DNA of 64,000 nt, from assembly GCF_054482595.1 (NCBI RefSeq), contig NZ_JBTHVH010000004.1; one strand, given 5' to 3'. The position numbers and the translations under genes were made by a program. The notes under the pieces were generated by a model that did not search any database, had not been told where the DNA came from, and saw only the letters and a list, made by a program, of their open reading frames with translations. Positions 14,703 through 21,832 of the stretch are shown here, piece by piece (position 1 is the first letter of the stretch; each line of letters starts with the position of its first letter). The stretch is from a plasmid.

Positions 14703-14740
14703 CCTTAACGTGAGTTTTCGTTCCACTGAGCGTCAGACCC
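14703..14740. repeat. Tn2/Tn3 38-bp IRR
   Basis: cttaacgtgagttttcgttccactgagcgtcagacccc. Confidence 0.85.
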
Positions 14741-15355
14741 CGTATATCGCTTGCTGATTACGTGCAGCTTTCCCTTCAGGCGGGATTCATACAGCGGCCA
14801 GCCATCCGTCATCCATATCACCACGTCAAAGGGTGACAGCAGGCTCAGAAGACGCTCCAGTGTGGCCAGAGTGCGTTCACCGAAAACGTGCGCCACAACT
14901 GTCCTCCGTATCCTGTCATACGCGTAAAACAGCCAGCGCTGACGTGATTTAGCACCGACGTAGCCCCACTGTTCGTCCATTTCAGCGCAGACAATCACAT
15001 CACTGCCCGGTTGTATGCGCGAGGTTACCGACTGCGGCCTGAGTTTTTTAAGTGACGTAAAACCGTGTTGAGGCCAACGCCCATAATGCGGGCAGTTGCC
15101 CGGCATCCAACGCCATTCATGGCCATATCAATGATTTTCTGGTGCGTACCGGGTTGAGAAGCGGTGTAAGTGAACTGCAGTTGCCATGTTTTACGGCAGT
15201 GAGAGCAGAGATAGCGCTGGTGTCCGGCAGTGCTTTTGCCGTTACGCACCACCCCGTCAGTAGCTGAACAGGAGGGACAGCTGATAGAAACAGAAGCCAC
15301 TGGAGCACCTCAAAAACACCATCATACACTAAATCAGTAAGTTGGCAGCATCACC
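14741..15355 (-). mobile_element. IS1 remnant (lacks ~150 bp of the insB end), abutting the Tn2 IRR
   Basis: It starts inside IS1 at gtatatcgcttgctgattacgtgcagc and ends at the IS1 IR ...gttggcagcatcacc. Confidence 0.85.
15025..15300 (-). CDS. insA: IS1 InsA (second copy)
   Basis: 91-aa product, near-identical to the first copy. Confidence 0.85.
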
Positions 15356-15401
15356 CGATGCAGCTTTCGTCAATCATGACAGTTATGAGTTTTCCGGTTA
15401 C

Positions 15402-15725
15402 TTATCCATTTTTGCCAGCGTGTTCCGCAACATCTGTTTTACTGTTTACACAGCACTCTTCACGTAAGAATTCGATGATAGCTTCCAGTATTTCGTATTG
15501 AGAGACACACATGAGCGTTCGACTCTCCCGGTTTTGTGTGACGAGCCCTACTGATACCAGGGCTGAAATATGATGACTTAACGTTGATGAGGGAATGCCA
15601 AGCTGCTTTTGCAATTCACCTACAGGCAAACCTTGTTCTCCAGCTTTTACAAGATGTTTGAATATGAACAAACGGGTCGGGTGACCCAGCTCTTTTAGTG
15701 CTTTAGCTACTTCTTCCAGTTGCAT
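15402..15725 (-). CDS. arsR: ArsR/SmtB-family metalloregulator
   Basis: 107-aa product with HTH LFIFKHLVKAGEQGLPVGELQKQLGIPSSTLSHHISALVSVGLV and a C-terminal CC pair. Confidence 0.7.
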   Translation of the reverse strand: MQLEEVAKALKELGHPTRLFIFKHLVKAGEQGLPVGELQKQLGIPSSTLSHHISALVSVGLVTQNRESRTLMCVSQYEILEAIIEFLREECCVNSKTDVAEHAGKNG

Positions 15726-15830: not shown

Positions 15831-16964
15831 ATGAATAGTTGGATTTCTATGCTGCAAGATGCCGCAGAGATGTTTTTGTTTTTGGCCGTCGAGCTATCTT
15901 TGCTGTTTATTGTCATCAGTGCCGGTGTGAGCCTGATAAGGCAAAAGGTCCCGGACCATAAAATCCAGCAATTGATAGGGGCGAAAAAAGGAAAAGGCTA
16001 CCTGCTGGCCTCGTTGTTGGGAGCCGTTACCCCTTTCTGTAGTTGCTCAACAATTCCAATGCTACGAGGGTTGTTGTCGGCGAAAGCAGGGTTTGGTCCG
16101 ACACTCACTTTTTTGTTTGTTTCACCGTTGCTTAATCCCATTATCGTGGGGTTAATGTGGGTTACCTTTGGCTGGAAAGTAACTTTGTTGTACGCGATCA
16201 TCGCTGCCGGTGTCTCAGTCCTTGCCAGTATCGTATTGGATTTACTAGGATTTGAACGTCATATTGTTGATCACAAAAACTCAGCATCAAGTGGTTGCAC
16301 CACGAAATGCGATGATTCCGAAGCTTCGGTAAAAACGTCGGCGGGTTCCAGTTGTTGCAGCACTAGCTCGACTCAATTGCCTTTAAAAACGAGTTGCTGT
16401 ACTTCATCAGCGAACCCCATAATTAACTTAAGGACGGTAAAGAACGAGCAGAACGTATCAGCGTGTTGTTCATCAATATCATCTGAACAACCAGCTGTTA
16501 GCTGTTGCAGCAGCGAGAATCTGGGCAATGTGAATCTCACAACGAATACCACCTCTGGCCCAATAAAGTTAGCTATGAAAGATGCCTTACAGCAGTTTAA
16601 GGATGTTCTGCCTTATCTTTTGTTAAGTGTATTAATAGGTTCATTTATTTATGGCTTTATCCCTTCAGAGTGGATTGCAGCTCATGCCGGAGCAGATAAT
16701 CCCTTAGCCATACCGCTGAGTGCAGTTGTTGGTATTCCGTTGTATATCCGCGCAGAGGCAGTGATACCACTTGCATCAGTGCTGATGACTAAAGGAATGG
16801 GCCTGGGGGCATTAATGGCCTTGATAATCGGTAGTGCTGGAGCGAGTTTGACAGAAGTAATACTGCTTAAATCAATGTTCAGAATGCCTATGATAGTCGC
16901 TTTTCTGACAGTAATCCTGGGTATGGCCATACTTATGGGGTATCTGACCCAATTGCTTTTTTAA
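15831..16964 (+). CDS. Putative ArsP-like permease (DUF318-type) with a Cys/Ser-rich central loop
   Basis: Product contains the TPFCSCSTIP motif typical of organoarsenical efflux permease ArsP. It has multiple TM segments and a CxxS/CC-rich hydrophilic loop. It is divergent from arsR. Confidence 0.55.
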   Translation: MNSWISMLQDAAEMFLFLAVELSLLFIVISAGVSLIRQKVPDHKIQQLIGAKKGKGYLLASLLGAVTPFCSCSTIPMLRGLLSAKAGFGPTLTFLFVSPLLNPIIVGLMWVTFGWKVTLLYAIIAAGVSVLASIVLDLLGFERHIVDHKNSASSGCTTKCDDSEASVKTSAGSSCCSTSSTQLPLKTSCCTSSANPIINLRTVKNEQNVSACCSSISSEQPAVSCCSSENLGNVNLTTNTTSGPIKLAMKDALQQFKDVLPYLLLSVLIGSFIYGFIPSEWIAAHAGADNPLAIPLSAVVGIPLYIRAEAVIPLASVLMTKGMGLGALMALIIGSAGASLTEVILLKSMFRMPMIVAFLTVILGMAILMGYLTQLLF

Positions 16965-16988
16965 TAATAATAGTAAGGGTCTTCTGGT

Positions 16989-17808
16989 GGCACTGTTGCA
17001 AATAGTCGGTGGTGATAAACTTATCATCCCCTTTTGCTGATGGAGCTGCACATGAACCCATTCAAAGGCCGGCATTTTCAGCGTGACATCATTCTGTGGG
17101 CCGTACGCTGGTACTGCAAATACGGCATCAGTTACCGTGAGCTGCAGGAGATGCTGGCTGAACGCGGAGTGAATGTCGATCACTCCACGATTTACCGCTG
17201 GGTTCAGCGTTATGCGCCTGAAATGGAAAAACGGCTGCGCTGGTACTGGCGTAACCCTTCCGATCTTTGCCCGTGGCACATGGATGAAACCTACGTGAAG
17301 GTCAATGGCCGCTGGGCGTATCTGTACCGGGCCGTCGACAGCCGGGGCCGCACTGTCGATTTTTATCTCTCCTCCCGTCGTAACAGCAAAGCTGCATACC
17401 GGTTTCTGGGTAAAATCCTCAACAACGTGAAGAAGTGGCAGATCCCGCGATTCATCAACACGGATAAAGCGCCCGCCTATGGTCGCGCGCTTGCTCTGCT
17501 CAAACGCGAAGGCCGGTGCCCGTCTGACGTTGAACACCGACAGATTAAGTACCGGAACAACGTGATTGAATGCGATCATGGCAAACTGAAACGGATAATC
17601 GGCGCCACGCTGGGATTTAAATCCATGAAGACGGCTTACGCCACCATCAAAGGTATTGAGGTGATGCGTGCACTACGCAAAGGCCAGGCCTCAGCATTTT
17701 ATTATGGTGATCCCCTGGGCGAAATGCGCCTGGTAAGCAGAGTTTTTGAAATGTAAGGCCTTTGAATAAGACAAAAGGCTGCCTCATCGCTAACTTTGCA
17801 ACAGTGCC
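16989..17808 (+). mobile_element. IS26 copy 4, flanked by an 8-bp direct repeat cttctggt
   Basis: IRs at 16989 and 17795-17808. cttctggt sits at 16981-16988 and again at 17809-17816. Confidence 0.95.
17034..17756 (+). CDS. tnp26: IS26 transposase
   Basis: Identical product. Confidence 0.95.
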   Translation: MLMELHMNPFKGRHFQRDIILWAVRWYCKYGISYRELQEMLAERGVNVDHSTIYRWVQRYAPEMEKRLRWYWRNPSDLCPWHMDETYVKVNGRWAYLYRAVDSRGRTVDFYLSSRRNSKAAYRFLGKILNNVKKWQIPRFINTDKAPAYGRALALLKREGRCPSDVEHRQIKYRNNVIECDHGKLKRIIGATLGFKSMKTAYATIKGIEVMRALRKGQASAFYYGDPLGEMRLVSRVFEM

Positions 17809-17919
17809 CTTCTGGTTTCATGTTGAACAAAGAAGACCCTTTAGCTTCTGTAATCCATTTAATCAGTCTGAATGAAATAGATTATAAATTCTGCTCTGCA
17901 TACCTGCTTAACCAAAGTC

Positions 17920-18272
17920 TCATGATTCTGATTGTCGGTACAGTGCCTGAATGTGGCATATCTGGGAGGTGCTGTACCCTGTTGCATCTGCCGTTTCTTT
18001 CTTGACCTGCCGGTAGTAAAGTACCTTTTGATGCCGTTCCTGAGCGACCTGTTTTCCCTGATATTTACCCAGCGTATGTGCGAGTTCAACTCCCTGCTTT
18101 TGGCGCTGGCGGTCAATTTGCTCGACCAGCAAAATATCATTGCGGTGACTGTCCATCAGTAAGCGACCCAGTTCCGGTCGGTCAAGTTTTGTACCGCTGA
18201 TATTCTCCCGGTAGTAACTGGCTATTTTATGCCCCCGCTCCTAAACAAACTGCTCCAGCATCTCTTTTGCCC
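17920..18272 (-). pseudogene. tnpR: Serine recombinase (resolvase-like) fragment lacking the N-terminal catalytic region
   Basis: Translation ...YYRENISGTKLDRPELGRLLMDSHRNDILLVEQIDR... plus an HTH-like tail. A stop precedes it, and it is divergent from the downstream tnpA. Confidence 0.4.
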
Positions 18273-18491
18273 GATCGGTGAACTGATCTTCCGTCTATGC
18301 CCTTAAATAAGTGCTGATGAACATTTTTTCACCGCATTACCGCATTTAGGTTATTGCATTTAATCTATCGCATATAGGCTATGTCGTTCATTGTGTGCCG
18401 TCACGTTTAGATTATGGTGTCAGGGTATACCCTTATGCGATAACCATTTTTGTTAAAAATAACGCATCGAATAATTTATGAGGAAAACTAT

Positions 18492-21479
18492 ATGGCAAGG
18501 AGGCAGATTCTTTCTCTGTCGGAAAGAGAATCATTACTGGCATTACCGGACGATGAGTTAACGCTGACCCGAATGGCCTATTTCAGTGAGCATGATCTGG
18601 CGCTTATCAGTGCTCACCGTAAACCCGCCAGCCGTTTTGGTTTTGCCGTCCTTCTTTGCTATCTGAAAAATGTCGGCTTTGCCCCGGATAAAAAAATCTC
18701 TCCCTCTGATGCGCTGCTGAAGCATATCGCCAGCAGGCTAAAGCTTACCGGGGATCTCTGGCCTGCTTACCTTTCCGGCCGGGATACGACCCTGCGTGAG
18801 CATTTAACCGAACTGTACCGCTATCTTGGCGTAAAGGCGTTCACCGGCAAAATACAGCAGGACTGTATTACGCACCTGTTATCGATGGCGACGCGCACCG
18901 ATAAAGGCATTCTCCTAGCCGAAGAGTTACTTGTCTATCTCCGGCAGAACAACGTGATAATCCCCGCGATTGATGTCGTGGAGCGTACCTGTGCTGAAGT
19001 CATGGCAGGCGGCGATAAAATCGTATTTCAGACCCTGAATGCCCCGTTAACTCCGGCTCACAGGGATGCCCTGGATCATTTACTTGAGTCATCAGATAAT
19101 CAGCCTTCCAGGCTGACATGGCTTCTGCAACCGCCGGGTAAAATCAATGGTAAGAACGTGCTGCAACATCTTGATCGGCTCAGCAGCATTGAATCGCTGG
19201 CATTACCTGAAGGTATAGATCGTACCATTCACCAGAACCGGTTGCTGAAACTGGCGCGGGAAGGCCGAAAGATGAGTAGCCGGGATTTGACCCGATTTTC
19301 AGCTGCCCGGCGTCATGCGATCCTGGTGTGCGTGCTGGAAGAAGCCAGAGCCACACTGACAGACGAAGTGATTGAGCTGCATGAGCGAATGCTGAATAGT
19401 CTTTTCAGCAAAGCCAAACGAACACAGGCTGAGCGCCTTCAGCAGACCGGAAAGCTGATCCAGTCAAAACTGAGGCAGTACATCGATGTCGGTCAGGCGC
19501 TGTCTGATGCCCGTGATTCCGGTGGCGATCCCTGGCTCGCAATAGAAAACATACTCCCATGGGCTGAATTTGTCGCCAGTCTGGATGAAACACGCCATCT
19601 CGCCAGAAAAAATAATTTTGACCCGCTGCATATTATTACCGAGAAATACAGCACATTACGGAAATATGCCCCACGCATGTTGTCCGCTTTACAGTTAGTC
19701 GCAACCCCGGCAGCGCAACCTCTGGCTGATGCACTGGTTGTGATCAAGGATATGTACCGGAAGCAGTCACGTAAAGTTCCGGCGGCAGCGCCGCTTGAGT
19801 TTGTCCCTGAAAGCTGGCGCAAGGTGGTGATTACACCTGTGGGTATTGACCGGCAGTACTATGAGTTTTGTGCACTCAGCGAGCTTAAGGGGGCGTTGCG
19901 CTCCGGGGATATCTGGGTTAAAGGCTCGCGCCGCTACAAAAATTTTGATGATTACCTCATACCCGAGAAGGACTTTGACAAACTCACACCGGCACTGCCA
20001 CTGCCCGTATCTGCTGATTATCATGAGTACATTACCAGCCGTATGACCCTGCTTCAGTCCAGACTTGAAGAGGTCAATGCCATGGCTGCCCTTGGTGAAC
20101 TGCCCGATGTGGAAATATCCGACAGGGGCGTAAAAGTCTCTCCGCTGGATAACTGCGTTCCGGCGCAGGTTTCACCGCTGGCAGAGCTGGTTTACAGCAT
20201 GCTACCGCGACCTAAAATCACGGAAATTCTCGATGAGGTAAACAGCTGGACGACGTTTACCCGACATTTTTCGCATATAAAAAATGACATTACCCGTCCC
20301 GATACCCGCTTGCTCCTCACCACCATTCTTGCGGATGGCATCAATCTTGGCCTGACCAAAATGGCAGAAGCCTGCCCCGGGAGCACCAAATCATCACTCG
20401 AAGATATTCAGGCATGGTACATCCGTGACGAAACCTATTCAGCCGCTCTTGCAGAGCTGGTAAATGCGCAGGGGAAAAGACCGTTGGCGGCATTTTGGGG
20501 AGACGGAACAACGTCATCATCAGATGGACAAAATTTCAGAACCGGCAGCTCAGGCCGCTACGCAGGGCAGGTTAACCCGAAATATGGGCAAGAGCCTGGA
20601 CGTCAGTTTTATACCCATATTTCGGATCAATACAGCCCGTTTTACACCTGCATAATCAGTCGGGTCAGGGATTCAACCCATGTTCTCGATGGCTTGCTGT
20701 ACCACGAAAGCGACCTGGAAATCAGGGAACATTACACCGATACCGCTGGTTTCACCGATCATGTCTTTGCCCTGATGCATCTGTTGGGATTTGCGTTCTG
20801 TCCGCGAATCAGGGATCTCCACGACAAAAAACTGTTTATCAAAGGGAAAGCAGAGAAATACCCGGCGCTTCAGTCACTGATATCAACGACCAGCCTGAAT
20901 CTGAAAGAGATCGAAATCCACTGGCGTGAAGTGCTGCGTCTGGCAACCTCGATAAAGCAGGGAACCGTGACGGCATCCCTGATGCTGAAAAAGCTTGCCA
21001 GCTATCCCAAGCAAAACGGACTTGCCAAAGCACTGAGAGAAATTGGCCGCATTGAGCGAACCCTGTTTATGCTCGACTGGTTCCGCGACCCGGCTCTGCG
21101 TCGGCGGGTACAGGCGGGGCTGAATAAAGGCGAAGCCCGTAACGCGCTGGCGCGTGCGGTATTTATGCACCGACTGGGAGAAATCAGGGACAGAAAACCG
21201 GAAAATCAGAGCTATCGCGCCAGTGGACTGACGCTGCTGACGGCTGCCATATCCCTGTGGAATACCGTCTATATGGAAAGAGCGGTCGATGCCCTGAAGC
21301 GTAAAGGGGTGAAGATCAACGAGCAACTGCTGTCGCATTTGTCGCCGTTGGGCTGGGAACACATCAATCTGACAGGTGATTATATCTGGAAAAGCAACCG
21401 GATACCGGCTTCTGGTAAGTTTCGTCGGCTAAGACCAGCTAAAGTCGAAAGGTCAAAAAACAGCCTTAACGTACAATAA
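18492..21479 (+). CDS. tnpA: Tn3-family transposase (995 aa) of an unrecognised member
   Basis: The N-terminus [19 protein letters not shown]... resembles the Tn21 subgroup, with full DDE region motifs. The gene ends inside a 38-bp IR. Confidence 0.85.
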   Translation: MARRQILSLSERESLLALPDDELTLTRMAYFSEHDLALISAHRKPASRFGFAVLLCYLKNVGFAPDKKISPSDALLKHIASRLKLTGDLWPAYLSGRDTTLREHLTELYRYLGVKAFTGKIQQDCITHLLSMATRTDKGILLAEELLVYLRQNNVIIPAIDVVERTCAEVMAGGDKIVFQTLNAPLTPAHRDALDHLLESSDNQPSRLTWLLQPPGKINGKNVLQHLDRLSSIESLALPEGIDRTIHQNRLLKLAREGRKMSSRDLTRFSAARRHAILVCVLEEARATLTDEVIELHERMLNSLFSKAKRTQAERLQQTGKLIQSKLRQYIDVGQALSDARDSGGDPWLAIENILPWAEFVASLDETRHLARKNNFDPLHIITEKYSTLRKYAPRMLSALQLVATPAAQPLADALVVIKDMYRKQSRKVPAAAPLEFVPESWRKVVITPVGIDRQYYEFCALSELKGALRSGDIWVKGSRRYKNFDDYLIPEKDFDKLTPALPLPVSADYHEYITSRMTLLQSRLEEVNAMAALGELPDVEISDRGVKVSPLDNCVPAQVSPLAELVYSMLPRPKITEILDEVNSWTTFTRHFSHIKNDITRPDTRLLLTTILADGINLGLTKMAEACPGSTKSSLEDIQAWYIRDETYSAALAELVNAQGKRPLAAFWGDGTTSSSDGQNFRTGSSGRYAGQVNPKYGQEPGRQFYTHISDQYSPFYTCIISRVRDSTHVLDGLLYHESDLEIREHYTDTAGFTDHVFALMHLLGFAFCPRIRDLHDKKLFIKGKAEKYPALQSLISTTSLNLKEIEIHWREVLRLATSIKQGTVTASLMLKKLASYPKQNGLAKALREIGRIERTLFMLDWFRDPALRRRVQAGLNKGEARNALARAVFMHRLGEIRDRKPENQSYRASGLTLLTAAISLWNTVYMERAVDALKRKGVKINEQLLSHLSPLGWEHINLTGDYIWKSNRIPASGKFRRLRPAKVERSKNSLNVQ

Positions 21480-21502
21480 TTTTCGATATCCAAACTGACC
21501 CC
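21465..21502. repeat. 38-bp Tn3-family terminal IR (outer end 21502): GGGGTCAGTTTGGATATCGAAAATTATTGTACGTTAAG
   Basis: The IR starts GGGG and ends ACGTTAAG as in the Tn3/Tn1000 group. It overlaps the tnpA stop. Confidence 0.65.
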
Positions 21503-21832
21503 GAATACAAGGACAATGCCGGTACCGCCTGATTACTTCTGGCGTCGTCTACAATGTTACTCCAGGCATATGCTGCGTCGTCCGGGGTTTGTTTTGGATC
21601 TATGTCCAATGTCGGCCAGACGTGGCCCTGATGATTCTTGCCCTTTGTACAGGAAGTGATTAAGTGTACTGAGCGTTCAGAGAACATTATCTTCCTTACA
21701 TACCCATAGAACAGCTTTCTAAGAACGGTGGGCTCGGCTGAAAATTACAAATCAGCCCCTTTCACGGCATCATTTTGATTCTTCGCGTCTGCCCCAGTAA
21801 GATGACCGGTTTTCTGCATGACAGTGTTATTC

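Follow-up and report, generated by a model that had tools for sequence, protein, structure and literature searches.

A TnEc1-like Tn3-family transposon remnant with an inactivated resolvase gene on an IncHI2 plasmid, and complete copies of its parent element

Introduction

Which transposon left the fragment that lies beside an IS26 on an IncHI2 resistance plasmid, and can an element of this kind, with a ruined resolvase gene, still move? The fragment occupies positions 17809–21502 of a 64,000-nucleotide stretch of plasmid DNA (NCBI RefSeq assembly GCF_054482595.1, contig NZ_JBTHVH010000004.1; hereafter the window) and comprises a transposase gene (tnpA), one terminal inverted repeat (IR) and a damaged gene for a serine recombinase (tnpR). 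The first-pass annotation, made from the letters alone, took it for an uncatalogued Tn3-family member that joins a Tn21-like transposase N-terminus to a Tn3/Tn1000-like IR and that cannot resolve its own cointegrates. By established Tn3-family biology, TnpA acting on both IRs would bring about replicative transposition via a cointegrate, and TnpR, acting at the res site, normally resolves that cointegrate and represses tnpA.

We conclude, with a probability of about 0.9, that the fragment derives from a TnEc1-like Tn3-family unit transposon of 6.4 kb, of which it forms the right-hand part. The features of the region are collected in table 1.

Results

The remnant is related to TnEc1

Pfam searches, a search for IRs and translation of tnpR bore out the basic description of the locus as a Tn3-family remnant in which TnpA is intact, one IR is left and the resolvase gene no longer functions. 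Both TnpA domains are full length (DUF4158, PF13700, 1–165 of 165; DDE_Tnp_Tn3, PF01526, 1–389 of 389, E 5e-148), and the protein can be aligned over its full length with the transposase of Tn4430 (PDB 7QD4, E 1e-214); it is the ~1,000-aa DDE_Tnp_Tn3 transposase by which the Tn3 family is recognised. Its length of 995 aa and its start are as first described, and the N-terminus is indeed of the Tn21-subgroup type, resembling the start of a TnAs3-family (Tn21-subgroup) transposase, with which the overall identity is 54.8%. The NCBI annotation pipeline (PGAP) gives the protein only the generic name ‘Tn3 family transposase’, with no TnEc1 label, and the identical protein is recorded in 544 blocks of the assembly collection.

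The identification is carried by comparison with TnEc1, for which we used a relative (pECAZ147_2, NZ_CP018993, 5,676 bp) whose transposase PGAP labels ‘Tn3-like element TnEc1 family transposase’. The 38-bp IR of the remnant (GGGGTCAGTTTGGATATCGAAAATTATTGTACGTTAAG), which occurs once in the window against 0 occurrences expected by chance, is identical to the TnEc1 IRs at 37 of 38 positions. Both elements have the order left IR (IRL), cargo, tnpR, res, tnpA, right IR (IRR), with tnpR and tnpA divergent, and both have a serine recombinase of the same unusual type (MFIRAYLRASTE/DEQ...); their TnpA proteins are 90.3% identical and share the start MARRQILS. They differ in nucleotide sequence (~83% identity), in tnpR, which is intact in the TnEc1 copy (223 aa) and a pseudogene in the window, and in cargo, which consists of macro-domain and TIR-domain genes in pECAZ147_2 and of arsR, arsP and IS1 in the element of the window. 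The pECAZ147_2 cargo (NZ_CP018993, 2075–3522) is defence-like.

The remnant is already known and very common. IncHI2-ST3 plasmids carrying blaNDM-5, such as pNDM33-1, have been mapped with the remnant labelled ΔTnEc1, in an arrangement given as ‘...IS26-blaTEM-IS1X’ followed by ‘IS26 upstream of ΔTnEc1’ with an 8-bp target site duplication (TSD), CTTCTGGT (PMC8920835, Zool Res 2022). The structure described there is the structure in the window, and the window region finds a 100% match in pNDM33-1 (MN915011); other papers, too, list TnEc1 or ΔTnEc1 in such plasmids. The 3,695-bp right-hand region is 100% identical in dozens of independent plasmid assemblies, and the family is widespread: of 5,426 complete E. 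coli genomes, 960 contain a match to it, and in PLSDB the number of matching records is 3,936. The description ‘unrecognised’ is therefore not supported, given the ΔTnEc1 label in print and a PGAP-named relative with 90% TnpA identity and IRs matching at 37 of 38 positions; the last figure also answers the statement that the IR matches no other. A literature search for the exact IR string found no occurrence.

Further relatives are built in the same way (IRL, cargo, tnpR, res, tnpA, IRR, with divergent tnpR and tnpA) and have the unusual resolvase, which is ~212 aa long and starts MFIRAYLRASTEDQ. Two of them, on the IncC plasmid pSal009 (NZ_CP050832, 6.9 kb) and on a Serratia plasmid (OX291611), have an IRR identical to that of the window, a colinear res at ~93–95% identity and the same resolvase type, and the pSal009 TnpA is 97.9% identical to that of the window. 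They differ in carrying formaldehyde detoxification genes (frmR-frmA-VOC-fghA) and an intact tnpR of 211 aa, the C-terminal third of which is more diverged from the window sequence than the rest; this pattern suggests mosaicism around res. A literature search for names of these frmRAB-type relatives found none. In a Klebsiella grimontii relative (TnpA 97.9% identical) the cargo is an ArsR-family (HTH_5) gene and a gene for a pyridine-nucleotide-disulfide oxidoreductase with a rhodanese domain, and in one on Yersinia enterocolitica pFORC2 (TnpA 95.8% identical; TSD ATTTA) it is cytochrome b and CDF transporter genes.

Members of the TnpA family were also seen far from the enterobacteria: Cardinium endosymbionts of arthropods (Bacteroidota) have two transposases 77–78% identical to the window TnpA, and TnEc1 is mentioned in a paper on Cardinium plasmids. 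This looks like a wide horizontal jump of the family. Solo terminal repeats of 38–49 bp, 95–100% identical to the query (window 21461–21502), are scattered in many plasmids of PLSDB and in E. coli genomes; the carriers include pO157-type plasmids of ~90–97 kb (some from E. coli O157:H7), Klebsiella plasmids and a Yersinia pestis plasmid. They are footprints of the same transposon family.

The resolvase gene is inactivated and res is full length

The minus-strand translation of tnpR, aligned with intact relatives, confirmed that a decayed serine-recombinase gene lies divergent to tnpA. The catalytic N-terminus had been thought missing, but the sequence that codes for it is retained (MFISTYLRA*TEDQ...), and the gene is killed by a stop in the codon of the catalytic Ser10 (TCG to TAG), together with a second stop at Gln28 (CAG to TAG), an in-frame 222-bp deletion that removes residues 72–145 (74 aa) and a 12-bp deletion of four codons (LSIR) near the C-terminus. 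Nor is there too little DNA left for a res site. The intergenic region of 167 bp has the length found in relatives with an intact tnpR, with which it is colinear and free of indels; within it lie repeated motifs of the TATCGCAT type and an imperfect 32-bp palindrome (18412–18443), while a scan of it for promoters and terminators gave scores at chance level.

Thus tnpR is irreversibly inactivated, res is full length and tnpA is intact. Res is present for cointegrate resolution but a functional recombinase is not, and the element of the window is, in this respect, a defective member of the Tn3 family. The prediction that it cannot encode resolution of its own cointegrates stands, for the reason that its tnpR is a pseudogene.

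Complete copies of a resolvase-null parent

Position 17809, at which the remnant was first taken to begin, is the edge of an IS26 flanked on both sides by the 8-bp duplication CTTCTGGT. On plasmid pHN6DS2 the same sequence is uninterrupted by IS26. From the duplication and the IS26-free arrangement it follows that the element extends further left, across arsP and arsR, as far as an IS1 remnant, and the IS26 (16989–17808) reads as a simple insertion that split the element between arsP and the tnpR pseudogene.

Exact look-up of the TnpA sequence, together with searches for the IRL, led to complete copies of 6,394 bp (as at NZ_CP053722, 55853–62246) with the order IRL, 270 bp, IS1, arsR, arsP, tnpR pseudogene, res, tnpA, IRR. 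The window remnant keeps only the IRR, whereas the complete copies on pCP131-IncFIB, on pPK8217 and on a sister plasmid of pPK8217 have a perfect IRL and IRR. The copy on pCP131-IncFIB is bounded by the 5-bp TSD TATCA; when its two flanks are fused around one TATCA, the resulting empty site is present without interruption in other IncF plasmids (100% identity, 100% coverage). The copy on pPK8217 (NZ_CP080123, 8012–14402) has the TSD TAAAA and is nested in the res of a related transposon remnant; its joined flanks are colinear with an intact res. TSDs of 5 bp, as is usual in the Tn3 family, are therefore present in both. The host replicon of pPK8217 is a P1-like phage-plasmid.

When compared with window positions 17809–21502, the pCP131-IncFIB copy is 99.97% identical without gaps and the pPK8217 copy 99.89% identical with one gap, in tnpA (the annotated tnpA is 3 bp shorter than in pCP131-IncFIB), from which it follows that both carry the same dead tnpR. 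Complete copies with a dead tnpR and clean 5-bp TSDs indicate that a resolvase-null element transposed as a unit; it has done so on two occasions or more, and probably more. In the records examined, the IRR adjoins seven different sequences, and those copies whose 3.7-kb right part is complete match the window there at 99.9% identity or better. Two of those copies, on pHN6DS2 and pTB91P1, have an internal tnpA deletion. The third complete copy, on the sister plasmid of pPK8217 (L017), has both IRs and no matching TSD; the region (2317–2617) is rearranged, suggesting that this copy was rearranged later, by intramolecular transposition or inversion.

The parent element encodes no resolvase, which would leave its cointegrates to host homologous recombination or to TnpR provided in trans by the many co-circulating relatives with a near-identical res; the TSD-flanked copies with a dead tnpR indicate that transposition by such a route works. 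The recently mobile, resolvase-less arsR-arsP parent is without a name so far. More tentatively, it is possible that the 6,394-bp element is a still unnamed, naturally resolvase-null transposon that is now spreading in plasmids and chromosomes of livestock-associated E. coli and Salmonella, depends on RecA or a relative's resolvase and is prone to cointegrates, although we would put this at somewhat below even odds.

History of the window copy

The gene interrupted by the insertion belongs to the IncHI2 backbone, and its empty site is present in two IncHI2 plasmids (L007 and L008). GAATA (21503–21507) is presumed to be one copy of the target duplication. The junction of IRR and backbone seen in the window is common to only 52 PLSDB records, and the IS26 junction to 42. 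At the far left, the IRR of Tn2 (blaTEM-1) sits directly within the IS1, which would account for the loss of the left IR through insertion of Tn2 into IS1 and subsequent truncation of Tn2 by IS26. The junctions are consistent with a history in four steps: the element would have entered a gene of the IncHI2 plasmid backbone at the target GAATA; Tn2 would then have inserted into the IS1 of the element; an IS26-mediated deletion would have taken the left IR together with the remainder of Tn2 and the adjoining backbone; and a further IS26 would have inserted between arsP and the tnpR pseudogene, generating the CTTCTGGT duplication.

This last IS26 landed inside a 10-bp perfect inverted repeat directly 3′ of arsP (window 16974–17845; without IS26, AAGGGTCTTC...GAAGACCCTT), one arm of which overlaps the 8-bp target duplication. 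On the IncHI2 plasmids pHN6DS2 and pTB91P1, where the internal tnpA deletion is large, the IRR adjoins another backbone site (AAATAAGACG...), a few kb from that of the window, and the gene interrupted in the window is intact.

ArsP-type permeases are efflux pumps for organoarsenicals such as roxarsone and methylarsenite. The ArsP_1 permease of the element has the TPFCSCS motif and a Cys-rich loop. Records of the arsR-arsP module come mostly from poultry, pigs or ducks in China, and the module is also found beside arsH in IncF plasmids that lack the transposon. The spacers flanking arsR-arsP have no homologue in the relatives, nor did the spacer between IS26 and tnpR (17809–17919) find a counterpart among the related elements examined.

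Table 1. Features of the transposon remnant and its surroundings (window coordinates).
Feature	Position	Strand	Basis or remark
Tn2/Tn3-type IRR, end of blaTEM-1 transposon remnant	14704–14741	−	Reverse complement GGGGTCTGACGCTCAGTGGAACGAAAACTCACGTTAAG; IS1 homology begins at 14741/14742
IS1 remnant, ~615 of 768 bp, part of the 6.4-kb element, severed by Tn2	14742–15356	−	Colinear with complete copies
arsR-family (ArsR/SmtB) regulator gene, element cargo	15402–15725	−	Open reading frame (ORF); PGAP ‘metalloregulator ArsR/SmtB’; Pfam HTH_20/HTH_5
ArsP_1 permease gene, 377 aa, element cargo	15831–16964	+	ATG and TAA checked; PF03773
IS26, 820 bp, with 8-bp duplication CTTCTGGT on both sides (16981–16988 and 17809–17816)	16989–17808	+	Sequence read
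Spacer, 111 bp, from arsP to the tnpR stop codon	17809–17919	no strand	Sequence comparison
tnpR pseudogene, TnEc1-type serine recombinase	17920–18324	−	PF00239, E 5e-12; alignment; PGAP pseudogene call
res and divergent promoter region, 167 bp	18325–18491	no strand	Colinearity with relatives; subsites inferred
tnpA, intact, 995-aa Tn3-family DDE transposase	18492–21479	+	ORF, Pfam, PDB match
IRR, terminal inverted repeat of 38 bp that includes the tnpA stop codon	21465–21502	−	Sequence
5′ part of IncHI2 backbone gene (WP_000490638 homologue), interrupted by the insertion	21503–21687	−	ORF 21466–21687; empty site

Weighing the assignment

Several points weigh against reading the remnant as the right-hand part of a TnEc1-like unit transposon with arsR-arsP cargo. 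The TnEc1 reference is a PGAP-labelled relative rather than the type sequence. By convention in ISfinder, isoforms have transposases more than 95% identical in amino acid sequence or DNA more than 90% identical, and the figures against the PGAP-labelled copy, 90.3% and ~83%, lie below both; by these identities the element is best described as a sibling of TnEc1 and not an isoform, and the label ΔTnEc1 is approximate. No target duplication is found around the IS1 within the element, and arsR-arsP may have joined through an IS1-mediated event instead of being original cargo. Neither the window nor any PLSDB record contains a left junction of IncHI2 flank, GAATA and IRL, and the order of events by which the left end was removed is a reconstruction.

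Because only one IR is left, the copy in the window cannot transpose as a unit. Its possible roles would be limited to supplying TnpA in trans, to one-ended transposition or cointegration as rare events, and to offering a patch of homology. An alternative that goes further holds that the copy is not inert, either because a 78-aa ORF left in tnpR (17920–18156, starting at Met57) encodes a DNA-binding fragment that still represses tnpA at res or because the single IR drives one-ended transposition and plasmid fusion. What the ORF keeps is the C-terminal part, which in the alignment with intact TnpR corresponds to its presumed DNA-binding end; res is conserved, tnpA is intact and one-ended transposition is established for Tn3-family elements. 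Against this, the C-terminal part that is kept has lost 4 aa and is substituted at several other residues, scores in the promoter scan do not rise above chance and none of the comparisons requires activity of the window copy; we regard activity beyond that of a passive remnant as unlikely.

Could the element be a truly uncatalogued lineage after all, mixing a Tn21-type transposase with a Tn3/Tn1000-type end? The Tn21 subgroup and Tn3 resemble it in having a ~990-aa DDE_Tnp_Tn3 transposase, 38-bp IRs starting GGGG and 5-bp TSDs. The likeness to Tn21 lies in the TnpA N-terminus, and that to Tn3 in the divergent tnpR and tnpA and in the inner IR end ACGTTAAG. Together with the generic PGAP name and the 54.8% TnpA identity to TnAs3, these traits speak for a separate lineage. 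The Tn21 subgroup has co-directional tnpR and tnpA. It was rejected as a home for the element, whose genes are divergent with res between them, whose IR ends ACGTTAAG and not ACGCTAAG and whose TnpA is only 54.8% identical to that of TnAs3. The Tn3/Tn1000 subgroup was rejected in turn, the IR matching that of Tn2, present in the same window, at 20 of 38 positions and the TnpA N-terminus being of the Tn21 type. The IR matches that of Tn2502 at 29 positions and that of Tn5396 at 18, and what we take to be the Tn21 IR at 25. Nearly all the IRs compared start GGGGTC, and the inner ends ACGTTAAG and ACGCTAAG differ by a single base; the ‘Tn3/Tn1000-like’ IR of the first-pass annotation thus comes down to one inner base. 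An IR nearer to that of Tn2502 than to that of Tn2 argues against a Tn3/Tn1000-type end, and TnEc1 agrees with the element in gene order and resolvase type, at 37 of 38 IR positions and at 90% of TnpA residues; with ΔTnEc1 in print and thousands of family matches in PLSDB and E. coli genomes, a separate lineage is quite improbable.

Tn5396 was also considered as the identity of the remnant. This transposon of pEC22 was reportedly described by Elhai et al. in 1994. It has been presented as a cryptic Tn3-family element, often seen as IS26-truncated remnants in enterobacterial plasmids, and a ‘Tn5396-like remnant’ has been reported in an IncHI2 plasmid. It was set aside, as the window element has no BLAST similarity to the Tn5396 remnant of p2246-CTXM and the Tn5396 IR is Tn1000-like, matching at 18 of 38 positions; the cargo there consists of SIR2 and DUF87 genes. 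These SIR2-family and DUF87 genes (NZ_KX646543, 34895–38355) are likewise defence-like and resemble a SIR2-HerA-type system.

A place in the arsenic-resistance group of Yersinia, Tn2501, Tn2502 and Tn2503, was considered too. These elements resemble the window in their divergent tnpR-res-tnpA arrangement, arsenic-related cargo and enterobacterial host range; the published Tn2503 TnpA has ~994 aa, the Tn2502 IR matches at 29 of 38 positions and the Tn2502 tnpA remnant is 77% identical to the window over 387 nt. Tn2502 is likewise defective by nature and is mobilised in trans, although its defect lies in tnpA and not in tnpR. Those 387 nt are, however, the sole stretch of DNA that aligns, and the resolvase of Tn2502 (from pYVe227) is of a conventional type (MSRVFAYCRVSTLEQ..., 194 aa), unlike that of the window, its cargo is arsHRBC rather than arsR-arsP and its IR ends ACGCTAAG. 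By comparison with Tn2502, the group was rejected as anything closer than kin at family level, and membership in it is very unlikely.

Finally, the idea that the tnpR lesions are sequencing or assembly errors in a gene that is really intact, for which one can cite the intact tnpR of 212–214 aa in close relatives, has a negligible chance of being right, since two point stops and deletions of 222 and 12 bp recur at 100% in dozens of independent assemblies, the tnpR/res part is found at 99% identity or more in 256 PLSDB records and the RefSeq PGAP annotation reads ‘recombinase family protein, pseudogene, internal stop’. The expectation that a named transposon with an intact tnpR would point to a frameshift error was accordingly half right: named and unnamed relatives do have the intact gene, but the lesions are real and shared by hundreds of records.

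Discussion

The remnant is a standard, already annotated fixture of IncHI2-ST3 multidrug-resistance plasmids and carries little weight as a discovery. For annotation, the practical message is that ΔTnEc1 is an approximate name for a 90%-identical sibling, and that the element includes arsR and arsP and has a dead resolvase with transposase and res intact. Its ArsP-type permease could be co-selected by arsenical feed additives, and the livestock and poultry origin of most records of the arsR-arsP module suggests such co-selection. A mobile Tn3-family element that lacks a resolvase would also be a plausible contributor to cointegrates among resistance plasmids; if the parent is indeed resolvase-null in the way outlined here, it would be prone to leave stable cointegrates, that is, plasmid fusions.

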